This document shows positions 13,141-59,687 of a stretch of DNA of 64,000 nucleotides, in pieces (the first letter of the stretch is position 1; each line of letters begins with the position of its first letter). The DNA lies in NCBI GenBank assembly GCA_026770705.1, contig JANJGN010000121.1, positions 496,001 to 560,000 on the forward strand. Reading direction: 5' to 3'. A model generated the notes under the pieces. That model saw nothing but the letters and a program-made list of their open reading frames with translations. It was not told the DNA's origin and did no database searches. Source of the DNA: Isurus oxyrinchus. Lineage: Eukaryota. The translations under genes were made by a program, and so were the position numbers.

Positions 13141-13253
13141 CTCTGATACGAAGGTGATTCTAACCAGGACACTGACCAGTTTGATTACAACTTAACACAA
13201 CATCACACGTTATTTGTCCGCACTGACTGACCAGATTGTTGCTTTACAAAGCT

Positions 13254-13393
13254 TCAAACAGTCTGTCGACTTCCTTTCACTGTTTGTCTCTCCCAGACAC
13301 AGACTCCAGTGATAGTGATAACCACAGCCACAAGGAATATCACAGCTCGTATTCCCAGGATCAGGATCACATGCAGAATCTCTCCTCCACTGT
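13254..13393 (-). CDS. G2 terminal TM exon with intramembrane Arg and short tail (activating type)
   Basis: ttctctag acceptor; phase-1 translation (D)SGGEILHVILILGIRAVIFLVAVVITITGVCVWERQTVKGSRQTV*. Near-identical copy at 59548. Confidence 0.88.
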
Positions 13394-15061
13394 CTAGAGA
13401 ACACACAGAAAGAAATCATCACTGACTCTCCGCTTTCAATCTCTCACTCTGGCTGAACAATCAAGCTTCATATCACTGCAACATTTGCTGTAATATTGAC
13501 CCATCCACTGGGATTCAATGTGGAATGAATGTTTTCATTGTAAACACTCTAAGAGTGGACAATCGGAACTTTCCCCTTAGCGTGGAACATTGGTGAGAAT
13601 GGATCATTGTGCTGTTGGACTCCCTGTCCAATGTTACTCTCCATCGCTGTGTACAGGATTGTGCTGTAGAAAATTCTGGAAACGTTTAGTGCAGGGTGGA
13701 AATCCATCTCGGACGCGTGTGCGAATCGAGCAGAATCGAGATGGACTTCCCCACGGACTTACACCCCCCGCTTAATAAACAGTTCCAATCTTTACCCAGA
13801 GAGAGGGGAGAATGTGGAACTCACTCCCACAGGGATTGGTTGAGGTGAACAGTATCGATGTATTTAAGGGGCAGGAGGGTCGGTAACCAGAGGGACACAG
13901 ATTGACCAACTGGAGGGGGAGATGATGAGAATTTGTTTTGACAGAGCGAGTTGTTGTGATCTGGAAGGTGCTGCCTGAAAGGGCGGTGGAAGCAGATTCA
14001 ATAGGAACTTTCAAAAGGGAAATTGGATAAACACTTGAAGGAGGAAGATGGGGGCAAAGTGGAGTGGTGGTTAGTGGATCTGATTGGATAGAACATTGAA
14101 AGACCTGGCACAGGCACAGTGGGCTGAATGGCCTCCTCCTGTGCTGTATCATTCTCCGCTTCCATGATCTCTCCCCCAGTCAGTAACCACTCCAGATCCC
14201 TCTTGAAGGCGACAGAGAAACAGGAACTACCACACCCACTGACAGCACATTCTCAAGGATCCCTACTCTCTGGGAAAAGATGAACTCCCCAACATCCAGC
14301 CTATTCCTGCTTCCCAGAGAGTGTAAACCCTTCAGGGAGGCACTGAGGAAGTTTTCAATAAAATGAATTATCAAATCTATCATTTGAGAAATAATTTAAT
14401 TCTGATGAACTCACAGCTTGTGTAGCAAACTGGGAAGTGGAGTTGCTTGAAAAGCTGGGAAACACAAGGATTAAGTGCTACAATGCCACCACTGGTGGGA
14501 GACTGTAACTACAGCGTGACGTTTACATAGGCAGTCATCATTATAAACAGGGGCATTGGACATACTGGGAAATATGTGCACTGGAAAGGTGAGTAAATGA
14601 TGTAAGATTTTCACCAGCAGGAATTCTCTAACTAAACCTCTCCACTTCTCTCTTACTCTCAGATACACAAACAAAATCACACAGAATCAGATAAGGAGGA
14701 GTTGGGGCCGGTGATTGTTCGAAGGGTTAGCTTTCAGGAAGCTTCTTAAAGGGAGAGAGAGAGTTGGAGAGGCAGAGAGTATCTGTGAGTGTCTCTATGC
14801 ATCTGAGTGTCTGTAATAGACTTTGTAATTTCCATTTCTTCCATAAACATGATTGGGAACACAAATCCCAGAATCCAGGCCAACTCTCCAGTGCAGTACT
14901 CAGGTAAGCCACAGGGCAGTGTGTGCTAGTGTGTTTGTTTGTGAGTGTGTCTTTGTAATTGCTCATACATGTGTGTCTGCACGTGTCTATTTAGTTCTGT
15001 ATATTTGTGTGTGTTTGTGCAATGTTTGAATCTGAGAGAGATGTTGTCTGTGTACACTCAC

Positions 15062-22399: not shown

Positions 22400-22516
22400 T
22401 TATAAATTCCCATAAACAGAATCCTTGGCAAAATCACAGTTTGCGTAAAGATCATCATCTGTATCAGGATTGACTCCGCGGTTAGGTTTCATTTCCAGAA
22501 CCTTTTCATCTTTCTT
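22400..22516 (-). CDS. G3 terminal cytoplasmic exon KKDEKVLEMKPNRGVNPDTDDDLYANCDFAKDSVYGNL*
   Basis: tttctattacag acceptor, phase 0, two Tyr motifs, TAA stop; AATAAA candidate at 21623-21628. Not in the ORF track. Confidence 0.82.
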   Translation of the reverse strand, partial: KKDEKVLEMKPNRGVNPDTDDDLYANCDFAKDSVYGNL

Positions 22517-22614
22517 CTGTAATAGAAACAGAAATGATCAGAGTGACAATCAGAGTGATCAGTGTTTAGTATTATTGATCCAAATCGAAAATTCCACCCA
22601 CAATAGATACATTA

Positions 22615-24580
22615 ATTATTGATACTGAACAGGGTTTGATTATTGATTCTGAACAGTGTTTGATTATTGATTGTGAACAGTGTTTGATTATTGATACTGA
22701 ACGGGGTTTGATTACTGATTCTGAACGGGGTTTGATTATTGATACTGAACGGAGTTTGATTATTGATTCTGAACGGGGTTTGATTATTGATTCTGAACGA
22801 GGTTTGAATATTGACACTGAATGGGGTTTGATTATTGATCCTGAACAGGGTTTGATTATTGATCCTGAAAGGGGTTTGATTATTGATACAGAACAGTGTT
22901 TGATTATTGATACTGAACAGGGTTTGATTATTGATTCTGAACAGTGTTTGATTATTGATACTGAACGGGGTTTGATTATTGATTCTGAACAGGGTTTGAT
23001 TATTGATTCTGAATGGGGTTTGATTATTGATACTGAACGGGGTTTGATTATGGATTCTGAATGGGGTTTGATTATTGATTCTGAATGGGGTTTGATTATT
23101 GATCCTGAACAGGGTTTGATTATTGATTCTGAAAGGGGTTTGATTATTGATTCTGAAAGGGGTTTGATTATGGATTCTGAACGGGGTTTGATTATTGATC
23201 CTGAACAGGGTTTGATTATTGATCCTGAAAGGGGTTTGATTATGGATTCTGAAAGGGGTTTGATTATGGATTCTGAACGGGGTTTGATTATTGATACTGA
23301 ACGGGGTTTGATTATTGATTCTGAAAGGGGTTTGATTATTGATACTGAACGGGGTTTGATTATTGATTCTGAACGGCGTTTGATTATTGATACTGAACGG
23401 GGTTTGATTATTGATTCTGAATGGCGTTTGATTATTGATACTGAACGGGGTTTGATTATTGACATTGAACGGGGTTTGATTATTGATTCTAAATGGTGTT
23501 TGATTATTGATTCTAAACGTTGTTTGATTATTGAACCTGAATGGAGTTTGATTATTGATTCTGAACTGGGGTTGATTATTGATACTTAACGGGGTTTGAT
23601 TATTGACATTGAACGGGGTTTGATTATTGATTCTAAATGGTGTTTGATTATTGATTCTAAACGGTGTTTGATTATTGAATCTGAATGGAGTTTGATTATT
23701 GATACTGAACAGTGTTTGATTATTGATTCTGAACAGTGTTTGATTACTGATTCTGAAAGGGGGTTGATTATTGATACTGAACGGTGTTTGATTATTGATT
23801 CCGAACGGGGTTTGATTATTAATTCTGAACGGGGTTTGATTATTGATACTGAATGGTGTTTGATTATTGATTCTGAATGGGGTTTGATTATTGATTCTAA
23901 ACGGTGTTTGATTATTGAACCTGAACGGAGTTTGATTATTGATACTGAACAGGGTTTGATTATTGATTCTGAAAGGGGGTTGATTATTGATACTGAACGG
24001 GGTTTGATTATTGATTCTGAACGGGGTTTGATTATAGATACTGAATGGTGTTTGATTATTGATTCTGAATGGGGTTTGATTATTGATACTGAACGGGGTT
24101 TGTTTATTAATTCTGAACGGGGTTTGATTATTGATTCTGAACGGGTTTTGATTATTGATACTGAACGGGGTTTGATTATTGATTCTAAACGATGTTTGAT
24201 TATTGAACCTGAACGGAGTTTGATTATTGATTCTGAACAGTGTTTGATTATTGATTCTGAAAGGGGGTTGATTTTTGATACTGAACGGGGTTTGATTATT
24301 AATTCTGAATGGGGTTTGATTATTGATACTGAATGATGTTTGATTATTGATTCTGAACGGGGTTTGATTATTGATACTGAATGGGTTTTGATTATTGATT
24401 CTGAACGGGGTTTGATTATTGATTCTGAACGGGGTTTGAGTATTGATTCTGAACGGGGTTTGATTATTGATACTGAACGGGGTTTGATTATTGATACTGA
24501 ACGGGGTGTGATTATTGATTCTGAACGGGGTTTGATTATTGATACTGATCGGGGTTTGATTATTGATTCTGAACGGTGTT
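22615..24580. repeat. 24-bp minisatellite (ttgattattgattctgaacggggt), roughly 80 copies, in the last intron of G3
   Basis: Directly visible. Confidence 0.97.
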
Positions 24581-24709
24581 GGGTGTGAGTTTGGTTGGGT
24601 TTGGGAGTGACTGTATAAAACATTGCAGATACAGGACTGGAGCAGCCATATCAATAACCAGGGTACTGGAGCAGCTGAGAGGCTGGGGATCCTGTGGTGT
24701 GTGACTCAC

Positions 24710-24814
24710 CTGATTCCTCAAAGCCCAACCACGCTCACAGTTTTCATAAACAGGACCTCGATGTTCATCAGCACGATGGTTCGATTTGATTCCTGCTTTC
24801 ACCTCGCCTCTCTT
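24710..24814 (-). CDS. G3 cytoplasmic exon KRGEVKAGIKSNHRADEHRGPVYENCERGWALRNQ (105 nt, phase 0-0)
   Basis: ctctattacag acceptor, CAG|gtgagt donor, YEN motif, paralogous to the terminal exon. Confidence 0.78.
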
Positions 24815-25325
24815 CTGTAATAGAGATGGAAATGGACAGAGTGACAATCAACATGATGTGTATTCGGTGTTGGGTTTGATTACTGGGGAGAGAGTTCCAG
24901 ATTTCCACTCCCCTTTGTGTGAAGAAGTGCTTCCTGACATCACCCCTGAATGGCCTGGCTCCAATCTGAAGTTCCAGCCCCCTTGTTCTGGACTCCACCC
25001 GACCCCCACCACCCACCCCCACCCGAGGGAATAGCTTCTCTCTATCGACCCTATCGAGTGTTTAATCAGTTTGAACCCCTCAATTAGATCCCTCCTTAAT
25101 CTTCTAGACCCGAGGGAATATAATCGTAGACTGTGTGTAACCTGTCTGCATAATTTAACCAGAAAGATGTTCTGTACAACAAACCTGAGCTTCACACCCA
25201 GATCTCAATAATCAGTAGAAATCTTTCAAAGGCATCAATCATTGGAATCTGTCTTTATAAAGTCACAACATCAACAAAGGATGGTGTTGGTGGTGGAAAT
25301 GAATTCCAATCGTTCCGTTACTTAC

Positions 25326-25410
25326 CCAGGACCTGTCCGACTGCTCGCCTGAGGAGGAACTGCCCACACGCTCTGCTTGGGCTGAATGACCTCTTCCTGT
25401 GCTGCTCCCT
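25326..25410 (-). CDS. G3 juxtamembrane exon (85 nt, phase 2-0), (K)GSSTGRGHSAQAERVGSSSGEQSDRSW
   Basis: ctaat..acacag acceptor, gtaagt donor. Bridges the phase-2 end of the TM exon to the phase-0 cytoplasmic exon with no stop. Confidence 0.68.
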
Positions 25411-25699
25411 CTGTGTATTTAATTAGAAAGGGTGGATGTGTCACTGTGAGTCAAATCAGGAATTGGGGAACAATTGTGAAAACCCTTTCACTGAAATGTA
25501 GGGCCTTAGTGTTGTGTTGTAAGCAAACTGTTAACCCTTTGTGTCCTGACTCTGTGACGTGATTCCTGTGTAAAGCTGAGCAGTCGTTGAGCGACTTTCA
25601 ATTCACTGCTCAGTCCAGATGTTGAGGTGGATCTTCTGAAGGAGCAGATGTTGCTCAGCACTCCTAAAAAATGTCAGATACTGAACATTGTGTAAGAGG

Positions 25700-25910
25700 A
25701 TGAGAGAGAAAATGAGAAGGAGAGCATTAGTGGAGACTGGAGAGAGAGTGAATGAGAGAGAGAATGAGAAGGAGAGCATTAGTGGAGATAAGAGAGAGAG
25801 TGAATGAGAGAGAGAATGAGAAGGCGTGCATTAGTGGAGATTGGAGAGAGAGTGAATGAGAGAGAGAATGAGAAGGAGAGCATTAGTGGAGATAAGAGGG
25901 AGTGAATGAA
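25700..25910. repeat. GA-rich ~50-bp tandem repeat, about 4 copies
   Basis: gagagaatgagaaggagagcattagtggaga... units. Confidence 0.75.
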
Positions 25911-26218
25911 ACATGGAAAATGGAAAGAGATTGCATTCACTAACAAAAGAAAGGTTTTCATTTATATAGCACCTTTCACATCCTCAGGAGGTCACAATGT
26001 ATTTTATGGTCTGGGTCAACACTGCCAGTTACAGGACTGAGTTGTGAAACAGTGAAAGGTGGATGAGATGTTAAACAGTAGGTGAACATCAAAACTCTTC
26101 AGGGGCTGTGAAGGGTTTTGGATGGTAAAAGGTGCTATTGAAATGCAAGTTCTTTCTATAAGGAGAGAAGGTTGAAGAAAAAATGTTTGAAATCAACCAA
26201 TTAAACCTTCGCACTTAC

Positions 26219-26315
26219 TTTCTCACACACTTGAAAATGAAGAATCCACTCAGTCCAACATTCAAACAGATTCCAGCTCCAAGCAATCCTGCTTTCCATT
26301 CATTGGAATCTCGCC
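26219..26315 (-). CDS. G3 transmembrane exon (97 nt, phase 1-2), (R)RDSNEWKAGLLGAGICLNVGLSGFFIFKCVR
   Basis: ttttacag/gtaagt; 20-aa uncharged Gly-rich segment followed by basic residues, similar in style to CD33-type TM exons. Confidence 0.82.
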
Positions 26316-26499
26316 CTGTAAAATCAGCCAATGAATGACTCCGGTACAGTTTGAGAATGGTTCCCTATGTACATGTAGTAATTCTGAACTTGTGAAGTGA
26401 TATTTTCTATGCATGAAAGGTCTATACAAATAACATATATCTATGTAATATTTATTGATAATATCCATGTACATGCAGGTTTCTATAAGGAGGATTCAC

Positions 26500-27580: not shown

Positions 27581-27862
27581 GTTCCACAGTGATGGTTATG
27601 AACCCCTCCACTGCTCCATGTTCATTCTCTGCCACACACTGATAGTCTCCAGTGTCCCTGGATGTAACGTGAGGAATCACCAACCACAGCTCATTGTTGG
27701 AACTTGTTCTGTTCATTGGGACATTAAGATGTCGCCACGTCAGGTTAGAAGCTGGGAAGCTCTCGACAGAGCAGATTATCACTGCAGAATTCCCCTCAAT
27801 TATATTGATCGATGAAGCGTTAATCATATCAAGAGAAGTAATTGATAGGTTCCGTGGTGCAT
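27581..27862 (-). CDS. G3 third C2 exon (282 nt, phase 1-1)
   Basis: (Y)APRNLSI...IICSVESFPASNLTW...DTGDYQCVAENEHG...TVE; tttag/gtgagt. Confidence 0.9.
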
Positions 27863-28929: not shown

Positions 28930-29211
28930 ATTCCACAGTGTTGGTTCTGAATCCCTCCACTGCTCCATGTTCATTCTCTGCCACACACTGATAGTCTCCA
29001 GTGTCCCTGGATGTAACGTGAGGAATCACCAACCACAGCTCATTGTTGGAACTTGTTCTGTTCATTGGGACATTAAGATGTCGCCACGTCAGGTTAGAAG
29101 CTGGGAAGCTCTTGACAGAGCAGATTATCACTGCAGAATTCCCCTCAATTATATTGATCGATGAAGCATTAATCACATCAAGAGAAGTAATTGAGAGATT
29201 CTGTGGTGCAT
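28930..29211 (-). CDS. G3 second C2 exon (282 nt, phase 1-1)
   Basis: (D)APQNLSI...YQCVAENEHG...TVE; ttttag acceptor, GT donor at the gap edge. Confidence 0.85.
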
Positions 29212-30154: not shown

Positions 30155-30451
30155 CTTGCACAGTTAGTATGAGGGTCTGCTCCGATGAAACAGATGGATA
30201 TCTCACTCTGCAGCTGAGAGTGTGTCCGTGGTGTTTGAGTGATGGGATCAGGGTCAGAACAGAAGTATAGGTCAGAGTGACACCATGCTGAGTTACAGTG
30301 TTTGAGACTGATCCAGGTACGTCAGTGGGAGTGTCCCAGGTTAAGACAGGTGCTGCTGTTCCATTGCACGTTGTGTTGAAGGTGCAGCTTACATCCACAC
30401 GCTTTCCTGCAATAATTTCAGCAGGGAATATCGTGGGTTTATCTGTGAAAT
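30155..30451 (-). CDS. G3 first C2 exon (297 nt)
   Basis: Paralog of 15538-15834, intact splice sites. Confidence 0.92.
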
Positions 30452-30822: not shown

Positions 30823-31191
30823 CAGAAACATGAAGCTGGGTTACAGGGTAATAGTTATGGCTCGGACCATTGTCAAATTCTATTCTGAAAAAATAAGGTC
30901 CTGCATCTTCCCGTCTGATGTTGTTTATAATCAGGGAACAGTCGCCATCTTTCAGGTCTCCAGACAGCCGGGTCCGATGGTGGAACCGTGGTAACTCGTG
31001 ACTGTGATCCTTGGAGTGAAAGGCAATGGGAGCCCAGGGAATCTGTTTCTCATTATTAAACCAGACTCCACCTCGCGGTTGGTTTTCCAGACACGATGGA
31101 TAACTGTAATGACATGGAATCTGTACACACGAACCTTCCTGAGCTGTCACCTCTCGTGGAGTGTCACCTTTCCACTCTTGTGAGGGTTCAG
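30823..31191 (-). CDS. G3 second V-set exon (369 nt)
   Basis: Intact, YFFRIE, extra BC-loop Cys. Confidence 0.92.
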
Positions 31192-32848: not shown

Positions 32849-33217
32849 CAGAAACGTGAAGCTGGGTTACAGGGTAATAGTTATGTCTCGGACCATTGTC
32901 AAATTCTATTCTGAAAAAATAAGGTCCTGCATCTTCCCGTCTGATGTTGTTTATAATCAGGGAACAGTCGCCATCTTTCAGGTCTCCAGACAGCCGGGTC
33001 CGATGGTGGAACCGTGGTAACTCGTGACTGTGATCCTTGGAGTGAAAGGCAATGGGAGCCCAGGGAATCTGTTTCTCATTATTAAACCAGACTCCACCTC
33101 GTGGTTGGCTTTCCAAATGTGCTGGATAACTGTAATGACATGGAATCTGTACACACGAACCTTCCTGCGCTGTCACCTCTCGTGGAGTGTCACCTTTCCA
33201 CTCTTGTGACAGTCCAA
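32849..33217 (-). CDS. G3 first V-set exon (369 nt)
   Basis: Intact, YFFRIE. Confidence 0.92.
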
Positions 33218-36674: not shown

Positions 36675-36714
36675 CTTGGAGAAGTGACAGGAGGAAGTAA
36701 GATTTCCCGATCAT
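36675..36714 (-). CDS. G3 leader exon CDS, MIGKSYFLLSLLQ
   Basis: ATG, phase-1 gtaat donor. Confidence 0.87.
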
Positions 36715-37164
36715 TGTCCACTCCCAGATATTTCCTCAGCTTCTAACTCTGAAGTTCTGAAAGAGAAAGGAGTTAATGAGACTTCACCTCTTGTCCGACA
36801 GCTCTCGAGAGATCAGAACTGCTTTTAGACAATATCTTCACAGACAAATTTGATTCTCTGTGGGATGATAGGTGCTCTGCAGAGAGTTACAAGGCTTTAA
36901 GAAAGAAAAACACTGAAGGACTTGCATTTCTATAGCACCTTTCACCACCTCAGGACACCCCAAAGCTCATGTCCCTGCTCTTCTCTCATCCCTTGAGCTA
37001 GAAAGATGTTCTGTACAACAGACTTGAGCCTCACACCCAGATCTCAATAATCAGTAGAAATCTTTCAAAGGCATCAATCATTGGAATCTGTCTTTATAAA
37101 GTCACAACATCAACAAAGGACGGTGTTGGTGGTGGAAGTGAATTCCAATCGTTCCGTTACTTAC

Positions 37165-37249
37165 CCAGGACCTGTCCGACTGCTCGCCTGGGGAGGAACT
37201 GCCCACACGCTCTGCTTGGGCTGAATGACCTCTTCCTGTGCTGATCCAT
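37165..37249 (-). other. G3 85-nt upstream exon; PU.1 motif at 37292-37304
   Basis: Paralog of 10436-10520. Confidence 0.7.
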
Positions 37250-42631: not shown

Positions 42632-42874
42632 TCACTTGAATCTGATCTGTGCGTATTCCGTCTCCTCTTCCCTGTGGACAGACCCATCACCACTGGGCAC
42701 CCTGAAGACTTGGGGATTGGCGTAGAGAAGGTCGGCGGGATTGTCAGGGTTCCCATGTCCAGCATCGCCTCCCACTGCACCTTCAGAGAGACCCCGGGGA
42801 GCTGGGGTCTCCCCCTCACTAGTTGTGTCTCTGGTTGCGTTCCGGGGCTCAGTAATCAGCACGTTCTGTTTACC
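42632..42874 (-). CDS. Terminal cytoplasmic exon T1 (phase 0), GKQNVLITEPR...DLLYANP...EETEYAQIRFK*
   Basis: tttctctgtag acceptor; distal ITSM TEYAQI as in CD33-type Siglec tails; AATAAA at ~42061-42066. No parent ectodomain found in the window. Confidence 0.75.
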   Translation of the reverse strand, partial: GKQNVLITEPRNATRDTTSEGETPAPRGLSEGAVGGDAGHGNPDNPADLLYANPQVFRVPSGDGSVHREEETEYAQIRFK

Positions 42875-43019
42875 CTACAGAGAAATGGAAACAGAAGACA
42901 TCCTCACATCATTTACTGGCACTGATAGGGTTAAATTATTGTGCAGCCTCGTTACTGTCAGTCGTGGCTCAGTGGGTTTAACTCTCCTTCCCATGTCTTA
43001 TGATAGAAACCACCTAAGG

Positions 43020-43205
43020 CATGTGCAGCACTCTCTCAGTACTGACCCTCCGACAGTGCAGTGCTCCCTCGGTACTGACCCTCCGGCAGTGCAGTACTCC
43101 CTCAGTACTGACCCTCCGGCAGTGCAGTACTCCCTCAGTACTGACCCTCCGACAATGTAGCACTCCCTCAGTACTGACCCTCTGTCAGTCTCGCACTCCC
43201 TCGGT
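43020..43205. repeat. 33-bp tandem array
   Basis: Visible; paralogous arrays at 46005-46290 and 48955-49730. Confidence 0.88.
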
Positions 43206-43331
43206 AATGGCTCTGGCGAGTGACGGCTTGGATTCTGCACACAGGTGCCTGGTGTGAGGCTCAATAACATGCACCTTGTAATCAGAGAGAGGATGAGAGA
43301 GAGGGATAGAGATGAAGGGACAGAGACAGAG

Positions 43332-44089
43332 TGTTATGAATCTATTAATGTATGTAATGTAATTGGAAATTGTCTATTTAGACAGAAGTTCAGTCTGTGG
43401 GTATGTTTGTGTGTGTTTTAATTGGACTAAAGCCAGCCAGTCTGGGTACTTTGATGTATCATAGTTTTGAGATGTAAACAAAGAGGTAAAGTGGTAATTT
43501 GCATTTTTAAATAGAACATTCAATGTCGGGGGGTGAAATCTTAAACCAATCAACGTTTATATTACTAATAAAATTGAGACTGTGAAAGGGGATTTATTGT
43601 TAAAAGAGGTGTAGTTCAAAGGTCCTGATGATACAATGAGAATTTACATTCAAATAGAAGCGCTGGGTATAACTTGAGCAGTTTTGTGTGTGCAGAGCAG
43701 AGGCTTGTAACATCAAAGCAGCTGTAAGCCTGCACCTGTCTGCAAAGGAACCAAAGTGAAAGGAACCTCATTTGGAATTTGTGAGGTGAAAATGCTTTGC
43801 CTGGAATCTGCTTAAAGTCTATGGGTTGTCTTAGAGGAGATTAGTTTAAGAATTTGTTAAAAAGTTATGATAATACTAGTTTGTAGCCATGTGCATATGT
43901 TTAACTTGTGTAAATTAATAAATGTCTCAAGTAGTTTGATATAAAACCATCTTGAGAACTGGTGGTCTTATTCCTGAATTTAAAGCTGCATCTCACACAT
44001 TCCATTGGGAAATATAGGTTATGACAGTTGTTTAAAGTTTCCCTCTGGGATTTTAAACAACAGCCTTTACCAGTTGCTGTGTCATAACA
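43332..44089 (+). mobile_element. Solo LTR (~760 bp)
   Basis: Perfect 8-bp inverted termini TGTTATGA...TCATAACA, near-TSD cagag/gagag, internal AATAAA; duplicate at 46417-47174. Confidence 0.75.
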
Positions 44090-44224
44090 GAGAGACAGCA
44101 TGGTACTGAACCATTGCTGACTCCACAGGTACAAATCAGTGGGTAACTGGGCTGGGAATCTGGGACATGTGTTGTCTACACACTGAGATTGAAGCTTTGG
44201 AGTGAGTGTAAACAGTTCCTGTAC

Positions 44225-44306
44225 CTGGTGCTTCACAGAGAGTGGACTGGGGGTCAATGCAATGTCTCTGGTCCCTGAAACTCTCTCCTCCATCGCTGTC
44301 TTTCTC
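44225..44306 (-). CDS. Juxtamembrane exon J1 (82 nt, phase 2-0), RKTAMEERVSGTRDIALTPSPLSVKHQ
   Basis: ttgcag/gtacag; phases fit TM (phase 2) to terminal exon (phase 0). Confidence 0.65.
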
Positions 44307-45234
44307 CTGCAATAACACAATATCACACTGTGGTTATCATATAGCAGAGAGTCAGTGCAGCACAGACACAGAGCACACTGTAACCTTACACCAATGACTC
44401 GACTGTCTCTTTAAATCAGTTCTGCACAAAGCACAGAATTAAGAAGCTCGACACCATCCAGGACAAAGCAGCTCGATTGATCGACACCCCATCCCCCACA
44501 TTAAACATTCACTCCCTCCACCATGAACACACAGTGGCAGCAGTGTGTGTACCATCTACAAGATGCACTGCAGCAACTCAGCAAGGCTCCTTCAACAGCA
44601 CCTTCCAAACCCACGACCTCTACCATCTAGAAGGACAAGGGCAGCAGACACATGGGAACACCACCACCTGGAAGTTCCCCTCCAAGTCACTCACCATCCT
44701 GACTTGGAAATATATCACTTCACTGTCACTGGGTCAAAACCCTGGATCTCCCTCTCTAACAGCACTGTGGGTGTACCTACACCACATGGACTGCAGCGGG
44801 TCAAGAAGGCAGCTCACCACCACCTTCTCAAGGGGCAATTAGAGATGGGCAATTAATAGCGGCCTCACCAGTGACAGCCACATTCGATGAAAGAATTTAA
44901 AATCTCACAGCTCAGGAGGAAGCCACTCAGCCCATCGTGCCTGTGCTGGCCCTTTGAAAAAACTGACCAATTAGTCCCACTACCCAGACTGTTCAATCAT
45001 TCCTGATGGTTATAACCACCACTGTCGATGGACCCTCTGATTTACCATTCTGAATCGAGGCAGATCAACTTTCCTGCAACAACTTGCATTTATATGGCAC
45101 ACTTAATGTAATAAACTGTCCCAAATCTCTTCAGGGGATTTTTACCTACATATAAATCCATCTCTGAGACACATAATGAGCTATTAGGGACAGGTGACAA
45201 AAAGCTGATTTCACAAAGCCAGTTAATAAGGACC

Positions 45235-45386
45235 NNNNNNNNNNNNNNNNNNNNNNNNNNNNNNNNNNNNNNNNNNNNNNNNNNNNNNNNNNNNNNNNNN
45301 NNNNNNNNNNNNNNNNNNNNNNNNNNNNNNNNNNNNNNNNNNNNNNNNNNNNNNNNNNNNNNNNNNNNNNNNNNNNNNNNNNNNNN
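45235..45386. other. Assembly gap, probably a GA microsatellite
   Basis: Ns; the paralogous site at 42310-42440 is a (GA/CA)n tract. Confidence 0.95.
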
Positions 45387-45612
45387 GAGAGACAGAGTAC
45401 GAGAGAGAGAGACACTGAATCTCTGTCCCCAATGACTCAGCATCAAGTCGTCACTGGGGAAACATTTCATTCCAAACCACACCAACCACAGACCCATTCA
45501 GTCCCTTCCTCCCTCTCTCCCCCTCTCCCCCAGTGGGTTGTCTCATGTTCCCAAGAATCTTCATCCCTGCCACCACCCACACACCTCCTGACCCCCTCTC
45601 CCCGTTTCACAC

Positions 45613-45861
45613 TCAGTTTCGCTTGAATCTGATCTGTGCGTATTCCGTCTGCTCTTCCCTGTGGACAGACCCATCACCACTGGTCACCCTGAAGACTTGG
45701 GGATTGGTGTAGAGAAGCTCGTTGGGATTGTCAGGGTTCCCATGTCCAGCATCGCCTCCCACTGCACATTCAGAGAGACCCCGGGGAGCTGGGGTCTCCC
45801 CCTCACTAGTTGTGTCTCTGGTTGTGTTCCGGGGCTCAGTAATCAGCACGTTCTGTTTACC
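45613..45861 (-). CDS. Terminal cytoplasmic exon T2, ...ELLYTNP...EQTEYAQIRFKRN*
   Basis: Intact paralog of T1. Confidence 0.72.
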   Translation of the reverse strand, partial: GKQNVLITEPRNTTRDTTSEGETPAPRGLSECAVGGDAGHGNPDNPNELLYTNPQVFRVTSGDGSVHREEQTEYAQIRFKRN

Positions 45862-47309
45862 CTACAGAGAAATGGAAACAGAAGACATCCTCACATCATT
45901 TACTGGCACTGATAGGGTTAAATTATTGTGCAGCCTGGTTAGTGTCAGTCGTGGGTCAGTGGGTTTAAACCTCTCTCACATGTCTTATGAAAGAAAACAC
46001 CTATGGCAGTGCAGTGCTCCCTCAGTACTGACCCTTCGATAGTGCAGCACTTCCTCAATGCTGACCATCCAACAGTGCAGCACTCCCTCAGTACTGACCC
46101 TCCAACAGTGCAGCGCTCCCTCAGTACTGACCCTCCAACAGTGCAGCGCTCCCTCAGTACTGACCCTCCGACAGTACAGGTCTTCCTCAGTACTGACCCT
46201 CTGACAGTGCAGCACTCCCTCAGTACTGACCCTCTGACAGTGCAGCACTCCCTCAGTACTGACCCTCTGTCAGTCTCGCACTCCCTCGGTAATGGCTCTG
46301 GCGAGTGTCGGCTTGGATTCTGCACTCAAGTGCCTGGTGTGAGGCTCAATAACATGAATCTTGTAATCAGAGAGAGGATGAGAGAGAGAGAGAGAGATGA
46401 AGGGTCAGAGACAGAGCGTTATGAATCTATTAATGTATGTATTGTAATTGGAAATTGTCTTTTTAAACAGAGGTTTAGTCTGTGGGTGTGTGTGTGTGTG
46501 TTTTAATTGGAATAAAGCCAGCCGGTCTGGGTACTTTGATGTATAGTAGTTTTGAGATGTAAACAAAGAGGTAAAGAGGCATATTGCATTTTTAAAAGGA
46601 GGATTCAAAGCCTGGGAGTGAATTCTTAAACCAATCAATGTTTATATTACTAATAAAATTGATACTATGAAACGGGATTTATTGTTAGAAGAGATGGAGA
46701 TCAAAGGTCCTGATGATACAATGAGAATTTACTTACAAAGAGAAGCACTGGGTATAACTTGAGCAGTTTTGTGTGTGCAGAGCAGAGGCTTGTAACATCA
46801 AAGCAGCTGTAAGCCTACACCTGTCTGCAAAAGAACCAAAGTGAAAGGAACCTCATTTGGAATTTGTGAGGTGAAAATGCTTTGCTTGGAATCTGCTTAA
46901 AGTCTATGGGTTGTCTTAGAGGACGTTAGTTTGGGAATTTGTTAAAAAGTTATGATAGTACTAGATTGTAGCCATGTGCATATGATTAACTTGTGAAAAT
47001 TAATAAATGTCTCATGTAGTTTGATATAAACCCATCTCAAGAACTGATGGTGTTATTCCTGAATTTAGAGCTGCATCTCAAACATTCCACTGGGAAATAT
47101 AGGTTATGACACTTGTTTAAAGTTTCCCTCTGGGATTTTAAACAACAGCCTTTAGCAGTCGCTGTGTCATAACAGAGAGACAGCATGATACTGAACCATT
47201 GCTGACTCCACAGGTACAAATCAGTGGGTAACTGGGCAGGGAATCTGGGACACATGTTGTCTACACACTGAGATTGAAGCTTTGGAGTGAGTGTAAACAG
47301 CTCCTGTAC

Positions 47310-47391
47310 CTGGTGCTTCACAGAGAGTGGACTGGGAGTCAAGGCAATGTCACTGGTCCCTGAAACTCTCTCCTCCATCGCTGTCTTTCTC
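47310..47391 (-). CDS. Juxtamembrane exon J2 (82 nt)
   Basis: Intact paralog of J1. Confidence 0.62.
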
Positions 47392-48564
47392 CTGTAATAA
47401 CACAATATCACACTGTGGTTATCATATAGCAGAGAGTCAGTGTAGCACAGACACAGAGCCCACTGTAATCTTAGACCAACGACTGGGACTGTCTCTTTAA
47501 ATCAGTTCTATACAAAGCACAGAATCAAGAAGCTTGACACCATCCAGGACAAAGCAGCCCGATTGATCTACACCCCATCCACCACATTAAACATTCACTC
47601 CCTCCACAACGAACACACAGTGGAAGCAGTGTGTGTACCATCTACAAGATGCACTGCAGCAACTCAGCAAGGCTCCTTCAACAGCACCTTCCAAACCCAC
47701 GACCTCTACCATCTAGAAGGACAAGGGCAGCAGACACATGGGAACACCACCACCTGGAAGTTCCCCTCCAAGTCACTCACCATCCTGACTTGGAAATATA
47801 TCATCGTTCCTTCACTGTCGCTGGGTCAAAATCCTGGAACTCCCTCCCTAACAGCACTGTGGGTGTACCTACACCACATGGACTGCAGCGGGTCAAGAAG
47901 GCTGATCACCACCACCTTCTCAAGGGCAATTAGGGATGGGCATTAATGCTGGCATCACCAGTGACAGCCACATTCGATGTAAGAATTAAAAATCTCACAG
48001 CACAATGTATTTATTGGGATCCTCCTGCACACACGCCCTGTCGAAGGACCCTTTGTGGTTCCATTGTTAATCGAAGCAGATCAGACTTACTGCAACTACT
48101 TGCATTTATATAGCACCTTTAATGTAGCAAAATGTCCCAAGGCTCATCCGGGAATTGTTAGTCACATCTTCACCTGACTCTGAGGCACATGAGGAGATAT
48201 AAGGGACAGGAGACCAACAGCTGAGTCAACAAAGTCAGTTATTAACGGGCATCTTAAAGGAGGAGCTGGAGATAGAGAATGAGTGACAGACACAGAAAGA
48301 AAGACAAAGAGAGGGAGAGAGAGAACAAGAGAGCGAGAGAGAGAGAGAAAGAGACAGAGAGAGACAGTGAATCTCTATCCCCAGTGGCTCAGCATCCAGT
48401 CCTCTCTGGAGAAGCATTTCATTCCAAACCACACCAACCGCAGCCCAATCCCATCCCTTCCTCCCTCTCTCCCCCTCTCCCCCAGTGGGTTGTTTCCTGT
48501 TCCCAGGAATCTCAATCACTACCCCCAGCCCCACACCTCCTCACTCCCACTCCCCATTTCTCAT

Positions 48565-48813
48565 TCAGTTATGCTCGAACCTGATCTGTGCGTATTCCGT
48601 CTCCTCTTCCCTGTGGACAGACCCATCATCACTGGACATCCTCAATACTTGGGGATTGGCGTAGAGAAGGCCGTCGGGATTGTCGATGTGCCAATGTCCA
48701 GCATCGCCTCCCAATGCACCTTCAGAGAGACCCCGGGGAGCTGGGGTCTCCCCCTCGCTAGTTGTGTCTCTGGTTGTGTTCCGGGGCTCAGAAATCAGCA
48801 CGTTCTGTTTACC
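48565..48813 (-). CDS. Terminal cytoplasmic exon T3, ...GLLYANP...EETEYAQIRFEHN*
   Basis: Intact paralog of T1; no J exon upstream. Confidence 0.7.
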   Translation of the reverse strand, partial: GKQNVLISEPRNTTRDTTSEGETPAPRGLSEGALGGDAGHWHIDNPDGLLYANPQVLRMSSDDGSVHREEETEYAQIRFEHN

Positions 48814-48954
48814 CTACAGAGAAATGGAAACAGAAGACATCCTCACATTATTTACTGGCACTGATAGGGTTAAATTAATGAGCAGCCTCGTTAGTGTCAG
48901 TCTTGTCTCAGTGGGTTTAACCCTCTCTCTCATGTCATCTGAAAGAAACCACCT

Positions 48955-58433: not shown

Positions 58434-59547
58434 GTTAGTTAAGACAAACTTCAACATCTCTCTCAGATTGAAACACTACAGAAACTCACATAAATATCCA
58501 GCCTTAAATAGACACCTGCAGACACACAATCCCACATCTATGAGCACACACAAAGACACACTCACAAACAAACACACTAGCACATACTCCCCTGTGGATT
58601 ACCTGACCTCCCTCAGTGCTGCACCGGAGAGTTGACCTGGATTCTGGGATTTGTGTTCCCTTTCATATTTATGGAAGAATATGGAAATTGCAAAGTCTAT
58701 TACAGACACTCAGATGCACAGAGTTACTCACAGATACTCTCTGCCTCTCCAACTCTCTATCCTCCTTTAAGAACCTTCCTGAAATCTAACTCTTTGACCA
58801 GTCACCTGTCCCAATTCCTCCTTACGTGATTTTGTGTGAAATTTTGTTTGAGTATCTGAGAGTAAGAGGGAAGTGGAGAGGTTTAGGAAGGGAATTCCTG
58901 TTGCTGAAAAGCTTACATCAAGTTCTCAGCTTTCCAGTGCCCATTTTTCACATGATGTCCATGTTCATAATGGGGATTGCCTATGTAAACATCACGCTGT
59001 AGTTACACTCTCCCACCAGTGGTAGCACGGTAACACTTAACCCTTGCATCTCCAAGCTTTTCAAGCAATTTCACTTCCTAATTTGCTACTATTCACCTCA
59101 ACCATTCCCTGTGGGAGCGAGTTCCACATTCTCCCCTCTCTCTGGGTAAAGATTGGAACTGTTTATTAAGCGGGGTGTGTAAGTCCGTGGGGGAGTCCAT
59201 CTCGATCCTGCCCGATTCGCACACGCGTCCGAGATGGATTTCCACCCTGCACTAAACGTTTCCAGAATTTTCTACAGCACAATCCTGTACACAGCGATGG
59301 AGAGAAACATTGGACAGAGAGTCCAACAGCACAATGATCCATTCTCACCAATGTTCCACGCTAAGGGGAAAGTTCCGATTGTCCACTCTTAGAGTGTTTA
59401 CAGTGAAAACATTCATTCCACATTGAATCCCAGTGGATGGGTCAATATTACAGCAAATGTTGCAGTGATATGAAGCTTGATTGTTCAGCCAGAGTGAGAG
59501 ATTGAAAGCGGAGAGTCAGTGATGATTTCTTTCTGTGTGTTCTCTAG

Positions 59548-59687
59548 ACAGTGGAGGAGAGATTCTGCACGTGATCCTGATCCTGGGAATACGAGCTGTG
59601 ATATTCCTTGTGGCTGTGGTTATCACTATCGCTGGAGTCTGTGTCTGGGAGAGACAAACAGTGAAAGGAAGTCGACAGACTGTTTGA
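59548..59687 (+). CDS. G4 terminal TM exon with Arg (CGA 59592-59594) and short tail
   Basis: (D)SGGEILHVILILGIRAVIFLVAVVITIAGVCVWERQTVKGSRQTV*; AATAAA at 60071-60076. Confidence 0.88.

Follow-up and report, generated by a model that had tools for sequence, protein, structure and literature searches.

Here, we analyzed a 64,000-nucleotide (nt) stretch of the genome of the shark Isurus oxyrinchus (contig JANJGN010000121.1, positions 496,001 to 560,000; hereafter, the window, to which plain coordinates refer) and, in particular, the gene G3 on its minus strand, a spliced shark Siglec-like receptor (sialic acid-binding immunoglobulin (Ig)-like lectin) with two V-set and three further Ig domains, for which the splice joints come from its gene family. 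The coding sequence of G3 comprises 10 exons with AG/GT boundaries at all coding-exon edges and matching phases, which add up to exactly 2043 nt, in frame and free of internal stops, just as the original prediction had it. An 11th, non-coding exon (the U exon, 37165–37249) lies at the 5′ end and is followed by the leader exon (36675–36756, acceptor at 36756), in which the signal peptide starts from the ATG at 36714 (coding part 36714–36675), giving an N-terminus common to many homologues. The ectodomain is encoded by V-set exon 1 (32849–33217), a Siglec-type domain with the F-strand Arg that scores above the Pfam cut-offs for both V-set and Ig_CD22; V-set exon 2 (30823–31191), where Pfam and alignment locate the Arg along with an extra Cys in the BC loop; C2-set exon a (30155–30451; Pfam C2-set_2); and Ig exons b (28930–29211) and c (27581–27862), both recovered by the gene model and Pfam. 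At the donor of exon b, GT alone is visible, a run of N adjoins it and the wider context is unreadable. The transmembrane (TM) exon (26219–26315, phase 1 to 2), defined by the model and by splice joints, encodes a helix without a charged residue. The tail is encoded by exon c1 (25326–25410; 85 nt, phase 2 to 0), exon c2 (24710–24814; 105 nt, phase 0 to 0) and the terminal exon c3 (22400–22516), which includes the stop codon. Between c2 and c3 lies an intronic, unstranded minisatellite (22580–24580) with a period of 24 bp (Tandem Repeats Finder, paralogue L006), the length of which varies among paralogues, from 9 to 68 units across 27 tail loci.

Judging from its sequence, G3 is a putative member of the Siglec family. 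With V exon 1 as the query, 136 candidates yielded 115 proteins; those with names are all from sharks and rays and mostly Siglec-like, the nearest being those of Carcharodon and Cetorhinus (identity up to 96%). The best relatives in the PDB are Siglec-5, -7, -8, -10, MAG and CD33 (E 5.5e-16 to 3e-13), with Siglec-5 and -7 at the top (E 5.5e-16) and CD22 as a weak match (E 1e-4), and the scores of Siglec-5 (62 bits) and MAG (55 bits) are too close to tell the two apart. The essential F-strand Arg, which is part of a YFFR motif in both G3 V exons, aligns with that of Siglec-5 and Siglec-7; three V-domain cysteines align with those of Siglec-5, with the bonds of the Siglec pattern, an intra-sheet B-E pair and a link from V to the following domain, predicted, and additional cysteines are present in the second V domain and in C2-set domain a. 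Pfam assigns V-set/Ig_CD22, C2-set_2 and Ig domains to G3, followed by a single TM helix in type I orientation, so that the V-set Arg, the Siglec Cys pattern and the combination of C2-set domains with a TM helix are all in place. A CD33-related Siglec is expected to combine a membrane-proximal immunoreceptor tyrosine-based inhibitory motif, or ITIM, with a distal ITIM-like or switch motif (ITSM); the G3 tail contains one C-terminal match to the ITIM consensus and no ITSM and, on the present tests, G3 is not to be classed as CD33-related. In the wider family, the extra BC-loop Cys is found in 8 of 8 internal-type V exons (30823–31191 on the minus strand is one) versus 2 of 19 N-terminal-type ones, placed such that it could form a bond with the unpaired Cys in the V domain before it. 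Genes in a 600-kb sample (contig C52, positions 600001–1200000) contain 1 to 5 V exons and 0 to 7 repeated Ig exons, and the essential Arg is replaced by Thr or Ser in 4 of 17 first V domains but kept in 10 of 10 inner ones. Positive selection on the V loops found no support (pN/pS, the ratio of nonsynonymous to synonymous variation, of 0.72 in loops versus 0.50 in the framework).

The tail of G3 contains exactly three tyrosines, within PVYENC (24754) in c2 and within DLYANC (22453) and, after a spacer of seven residues, the C-terminal SVYGNL (22420) in c3, all on the minus strand. All three are followed by Asn at the second position (YxN), as had been claimed, and the last one alone fits the ITIM consensus ([SIVL]xYxx[ILV] matches SVYGNL only), which had been claimed as well. 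Given the Asn frequency in homologues (0.059), the chance of YxN at three independent sites is p ~2e-4, and at two sites p ~3.5e-3; the latter value is fairer because c2 duplicates c3. The two terminal motifs define a class of tails, YxNC-x7-YxN, to which 25 of the 115 homologues belong; these come from 10 shark and 4 ray species (14 in all), and in 23 of the 25, the last two tyrosines are 11 residues apart. RefSeq models of elasmobranchs with the same TM-c1-c2-c3 tail are 79–90% alike (for instance, Cetorhinus P0037 and Carcharodon P0116). A search with the single tail retrieved matches in its own species only (2 among 3 candidates), and a profile of 8 tails yielded 16 matches among 5172 candidates, all Siglec-like proteins of sharks and rays, in a word-limited search that makes for weak evidence of absence elsewhere.

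The original prediction regarded this tail as atypical, a label that has to be dropped: it is one of three standard classes in the family, with about 100 copies in the genome. By pattern, 43 of the 115 homologues have ITIM+ITSM tails (class A), 25 have the G3-type tail (class B) and 7 have a short stub tail next to an Arg in the TM helix (class C), the remainder being partial or other models, and exons of all three classes are present within the window. The tail was correctly set apart from the ITIM+ITSM layout, given that G3 has no ITSM and a separate ITIM+ITSM class exists. Exact-pattern searches of the genome (control 0 for each pattern) matched 393 leader exons, 213 Arg-TM exons, 175 ITSM exons, often 2–3 per gene, 127 c3 exons and 106 class B TM exons; these are exon counts, which uncollapsed haplotypes could raise, and most of the listed matches sit on a few contigs of 1.5–4.2 Mb. 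An earlier class B TM pattern with 15 matches contained a G3-type variant base and was discarded as a census. Among the 28 leader-led models in the C52 sample, 13 pass a coarse integrity check, namely, 8 of class A, 2 of class B (one without c2 and c3) and 3 of class C. In a tree of 17 first V exons, tail class changes 8 times, compared with a mean of 7.7 for shuffled labels, and the starred branches force at least 3–5 changes per class. The V heads are unlinked to tail class and, as expected of paired receptors, near-identical ligand-binding heads are joined to tails of different signalling type; Carcharodon P0116 carries the G3-class tail on a quite different head.

Other exons in and beyond the window belong to the sister classes. 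At 42635–48837 (minus strand), three tandem ITIM-like+ITSM terminal exons are accompanied by two first-tail exons between them, with no upstream TM or ectodomain exon within the window, apparently an orphan class A tail. Arg-TM exons with a stub tail, that is, of the activating class, are found at 13253–13394 (minus strand) and 59547–59684 (plus strand), in both genes with a half-length Ig exon ahead of the TM exon, and the second V exon of the plus-strand gene is interrupted by a stop. On a large contig (L106–L107, C21 at 89.4466–89.4476 Mb), an unrelated Ig exon is likewise followed by an Arg-TM exon (79% identical), which indicates that the activating anchor occurs in another receptor family as well.

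Paralogous tails reveal which part of this arrangement is stable. We fetched 40 c3 loci (of 100 listed and 127 counted), of which 27 have the complete TM-c1-c2-c3 series and 13 are orphan c3 exons; in 24 of the 27, the frame is open to the terminal motif. Tails with 4–5 tyrosines, 1–2 of them extra and outside the YxN context, make up 23 of these 24, with one all-YxN tail, so the state with all three tyrosines in YxN is specific to G3 rather than class-wide. YENC, which was outside the selection pattern, is kept in 24 of 24, and in 5 of 27 paralogues the c2 acceptor is GG, for which a two-tyrosine tail is predicted. Because of the extra tyrosines, the GG acceptors and a gene without c2 among the paralogues, the conserved unit is the C-terminal YxNC-x7-YxN, with the third site optional. 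The gene without c2 (leader-V-C2-TM-c1-c3; L102–L105), a divergent, outlying, two-tyrosine member, is located at 15.13–15.14 Mb of contig C34 (19.9 Mb), a possible chromosomal anchor of the cluster. The 13 orphans (among loci L001–L040, for example, L002, L007 and L012) retain an intact YxN exon, broken at the minisatellite edge, with an inverted gene start upstream; the junction is near-identical in all of them, which suggests one old rearrangement that was amplified many times.

To what extent the tail is joined to the receptor was addressed by comparing the region 24600–26450 with four contig sets presumed to derive from RNA (X1, X2, X4 and X5; two studies). The TM-c1 joint is present in X5 and X4, the c1-c2 joint in X2, X5 and X4, and a TM-c2 joint that skips c1 in X1 and X2, all with GT..AG, and among the loose ends of X1 contigs, the 3′ end of the last Ig exon adjoins the TM exon, and c2 is followed by the first 11 nt of c3. 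TM-to-tail splicing holds for the gene family, with the G3 allele itself outside these contigs; the concern attached to the original prediction, that the tyrosine exons might not be spliced to the TM exon, is removed at the family level by the TM-c1 and c1-c2 joints and stays for the G3 allele. The TM exon ends in phase 2 and the tyrosine exons c2 and c3 begin in phase 0, which means that they are in frame only when c1 is included. When c1 is skipped, four residues are added before a stop, which lies 89 nt ahead of the c2-c3 junction, and the outcome is a tyrosine-free stub; a stop at this distance would normally trigger nonsense-mediated decay (NMD). P0059, an isoform of the catshark in RefSeq, terminates in the frame that corresponds to c1 skipping, and the c1 acceptor is the least pyrimidine-rich of the nine in G3 (10/17 versus 11–13), a small difference that fits c1 skipping. 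Contig depth is unable to rank the isoforms and was not used for this purpose.

The DNA alignment of c2 with c3 scores 114, compared with a maximum of 67 for shuffled sequences, and c2 is a tandem duplicate of c3 in which the second Tyr position was turned into a new splice donor. Homology of c3 and c2 to the ITIM/ITSM exon was considered and rejected as unsupported (of 500 shuffles, 17 and 61 scored as high), and the likeness between c1 and the first exon of the class A tail is of borderline strength (15 of 500). Exon c1 is 97–98% identical to an exon that precedes nearly every leader exon by ~430 nt, in G3, the U exon (97% by blastn), which is spliced to the leader in the presumed-RNA sets X1, X4 and X7 and through which the RefSeq models P0047, P0085 and P0039 read. 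Evidently, c1 and the 5′ U exon are copies of one sequence, with copying in either direction compatible with the data. A core that we take to be PU.1/ETS-like is present just upstream of the 5′ copies in 35 of 41 cases and of none of the 28 tail copies (related, non-independent copies), and an AT-rich element also precedes the G3 U exon. The 5′ and tail copies of Heptranchias are compatible with each other within 2 nt, compared with 6 nt to G3 c1, and the 5′ copy of the window is 2 nt from G3 c1 and 6 nt from the c1 of Heptranchias (shuffled minimum 21); given this likeness within lineages, the two uses of the sequence evolve in concert in each lineage. The notion that c1 is a stray promoter outside the tail is ruled out by the TM-c1-c2 joints and by homologues that encode c1. 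In some genomic models, TM-c1 runs directly into a leader exon, from which it seems that rearrangement, too, may be promoted by the shared exon. In presumed-RNA contigs of X1, X3 and X7, a leader exon is joined to a copy of the 5′ exon downstream of it (36675; 25445/37281), in agreement with genomic tandem duplications of 5′ exon and leader ~2 kb apart. The G3 U exon starts with an ATG that is missing from the other copies in the window and opens a short upstream open reading frame (ORF) that stops ahead of the signal-peptide ATG.

What might such a tail do? The SH2 domain of Grb2 strongly favours Asn at the second position after the phosphotyrosine (PMC12521615, in the part of the text available), and motifs of the pY-x-N type are present three times in G3 and as a conserved pair in homologues. 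On balance, we lean towards the YxN tyrosines of the G3 tail recruiting Grb2-family adaptors rather than, mainly, SHP phosphatases. A sialoglycan or microbial ligand would cluster the receptor, Src-family kinases would phosphorylate the tail tyrosines, and two or three SH2 domains of Grb2, Grap or Gads would dock on the tail; the docked adaptors could then tune, and most likely amplify, signals of the inhibitory and activating sister classes on the same leukocyte, and c1 skipping, by producing a non-signalling form or an NMD substrate, might act as an off switch. Of the adaptor-type or dual-function receptor that was originally envisaged, the adaptor part receives partial support: sharks and rays alike conserve the YxN pair, as would suit adaptor docking.

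Several observations weigh against this view. The 25 homologues were chosen by motif, so that the counts of Asn at the second position (23/25 for the penultimate and 25/25 for the last Tyr) are partly circular. Asn also follows the ITIM-type tyrosine in 29 of 42 ITIM-class homologues and, accordingly, YxN alone does not separate the classes. Variant ratios among paralogues (1.46 for TM, 0.69 for c1, 1.08 for c2 and 0.47 for c3, which was pre-selected) provide no clear indication of purifying selection on TM, c1 and c2. The c2-c3 joint is represented by the 11-nt loose end in two contigs, and the presumed-RNA contigs carry the paralogue bases at 26261 and 24771 rather than those private to G3. 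Furthermore, the tail of TIGIT, which combines an Ig tail tyrosine (ITT) motif with an ITIM, failed to recruit Grb2 in a reconstitution, as far as the accessible text goes (PMC9287124), indicating that a YxN motif is insufficient for recruitment. Amplification is the weakest step of the scheme because Grb2 docking on CD22 results in inhibition, according to the portion available (PMC5302901).

The alternative that survives best, although we regard it as unlikely, is that the tail is inhibitory, with SVYGNL acting as a single ITIM for SHP-1 or SHIP-1, or Grb2 serving solely to bring in SHIP-1 or a calcium pump as on CD22, with Csk as a possible partner in relatives ending in YAN[IVM]. The last G3 motif does fit the ITIM consensus, the TM helix has no charged residue, the YxN/Grb2 arm of CD22 is described as inhibitory in the available passages (PMC5302901), and the Csk consensus given in the accessible part of one paper, Y[TAS][KRQN][MIVR] (PMC4810170), fits 9 of 25 homologue termini by hand count. 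However, the motifs of G3 itself fall outside the Csk consensus, a dedicated ITIM+ITSM class with 175 exon matches already exists, and the ITIM consensus is found in 10/25 terminal and 0/25 penultimate homologue motifs; set against Asn in 25/25 last motifs, this also leaves the ITIM-based dual function of the original proposal weak.

Less likely still, the tail class would be real with G3 as a dispensable or silent copy, or one that makes mainly the c1-skipped stub. Only 13 of 28 leader-led models in the 600-kb sample pass the coarse check and 13 of 40 terminal exons are orphans, and G3 has gained an upstream ATG with a short ORF in its 5′ exon, has one donor adjoining masked sequence and has its private bases in none of the presumed-RNA contigs. 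Those contig sets, however, come from other individuals or species, which makes the missing G3 alleles uninformative, and none of the ten G3 exons is interrupted or out of phase, nor is the essential Arg or the Cys pattern lost. Finally, it is improbable that the two terminal tyrosines form a non-canonical pair resembling an immunoreceptor tyrosine-based activation motif, or ITAM, engaging tandem SH2 domains of the Syk/ZAP-70 type for phagocytosis or internalisation as in CEACAM3-type tails: the spacing of 11 residues in 23/25 homologues, equivalent to a spacer of 7, agrees with the x6-8 spacer (PMC2832619, so far as its text is available) of the ITAM pattern YxxL/I-x6-8-YxxL/I, and acidic residues lie upstream, but the residue at the third position after the first Tyr is Cys, Trp or Phe in 25/25 and never Leu or Ile, and only the first motif was duplicated into c2, which fits independent docking sites better than bidentate binding.

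The G3 receptor has partial parallels in known systems. CD33-related Siglecs (Siglec-5, -7, -8, -10 and CD33, with -5/-14 as a pair) share with G3 the V-set head, the F-strand Arg and the Cys pattern and, with the shark family at large, clustering, fast change, exchange of heads among tail types and an ITIM+ITSM class. Unlike these, the G3 class lacks the ITIM+ITSM pair and has YxNC-x7-YxN at the very C-terminus instead, the shark cluster is far larger (393 leader exons), and its activating sister class uses a TM Arg. In CD22 (Siglec-2) and Siglec-10/-G, the tail carries a Grb2-binding YxN (Y4 in CD22), as predicted for G3 (PMC6286995 and PMC5302901, each in part), but a single one beside ITIMs, whereas the shark class has a core of 2–3 YxN motifs with the ITIM consensus partly kept. 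Grb2 also co-purifies with the phosphotyrosine tail of prolectin (CLEC17A), a receptor that binds glycans (PMC2709368, available text); prolectin differs from G3 in being a C-type lectin of unrelated fold encoded by a single gene. TIGIT (ITT-like) and the teleost LITRs (IpLITR 1.1b) resemble G3 as Ig-superfamily proteins with YxN proposed for Grb2 binding, and the LITRs form a multigene family of fish with mixed outputs (both in the sections available of PMC4810170); their ectodomains are unrelated, and a frame switch by a 5′-exon copy is not described for them in those sections.

The tail itself is already included in automatic annotation, RefSeq models named 'sialic acid-binding Ig-like lectin 13/12-like' in elasmobranchs having the same tail as G3 under automatically assigned names. 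Among the openly available papers searched, none was found that describes the tails of shark Siglecs, the size of the cluster or the shared exon; an earlier description may exist elsewhere. In the text accessible, Siglecs receive a single mention in the whale-shark genome paper, as a family of jawed vertebrates (PMC8455134), a paper on fish Siglecs reports four Siglecs regularly present in fish and inhibitory CD33-related ones lacking, with no mention of sharks (PMC7226832), and a 2025 Siglec review does not mention sharks either (PMC13358205). For three small primates, 4–5 CD33-related genes are given in the available part of the source (PMC4384638).

Taken as a whole, the family could tentatively be viewed as a three-channel shark Siglec system of several hundred genes, in which a brake, an accelerator and a Grb2-type adaptor channel that predates the shark-ray split would operate together; in the adaptor channel, a copy of the family's promoter exon, kept similar to it through gene conversion, would allow regulated splicing to choose between a receptor that signals and a decoy without a tail. 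Exon c1 offers a testable case in which one 85-nt sequence serves as a non-coding exon at the 5′ end and also, as a coding exon, sets the frame. If the interpretation is correct, the adaptor-docking YxN pair would represent a new type of tail, unseen as a class among mammalian Siglecs in those parts of the literature that were covered. Hundreds of shark Siglec-like genes in three classes, if real, would mean that the paired-receptor logic of the CD33-related Siglecs was already in place at the base of jawed vertebrates or else arose twice.

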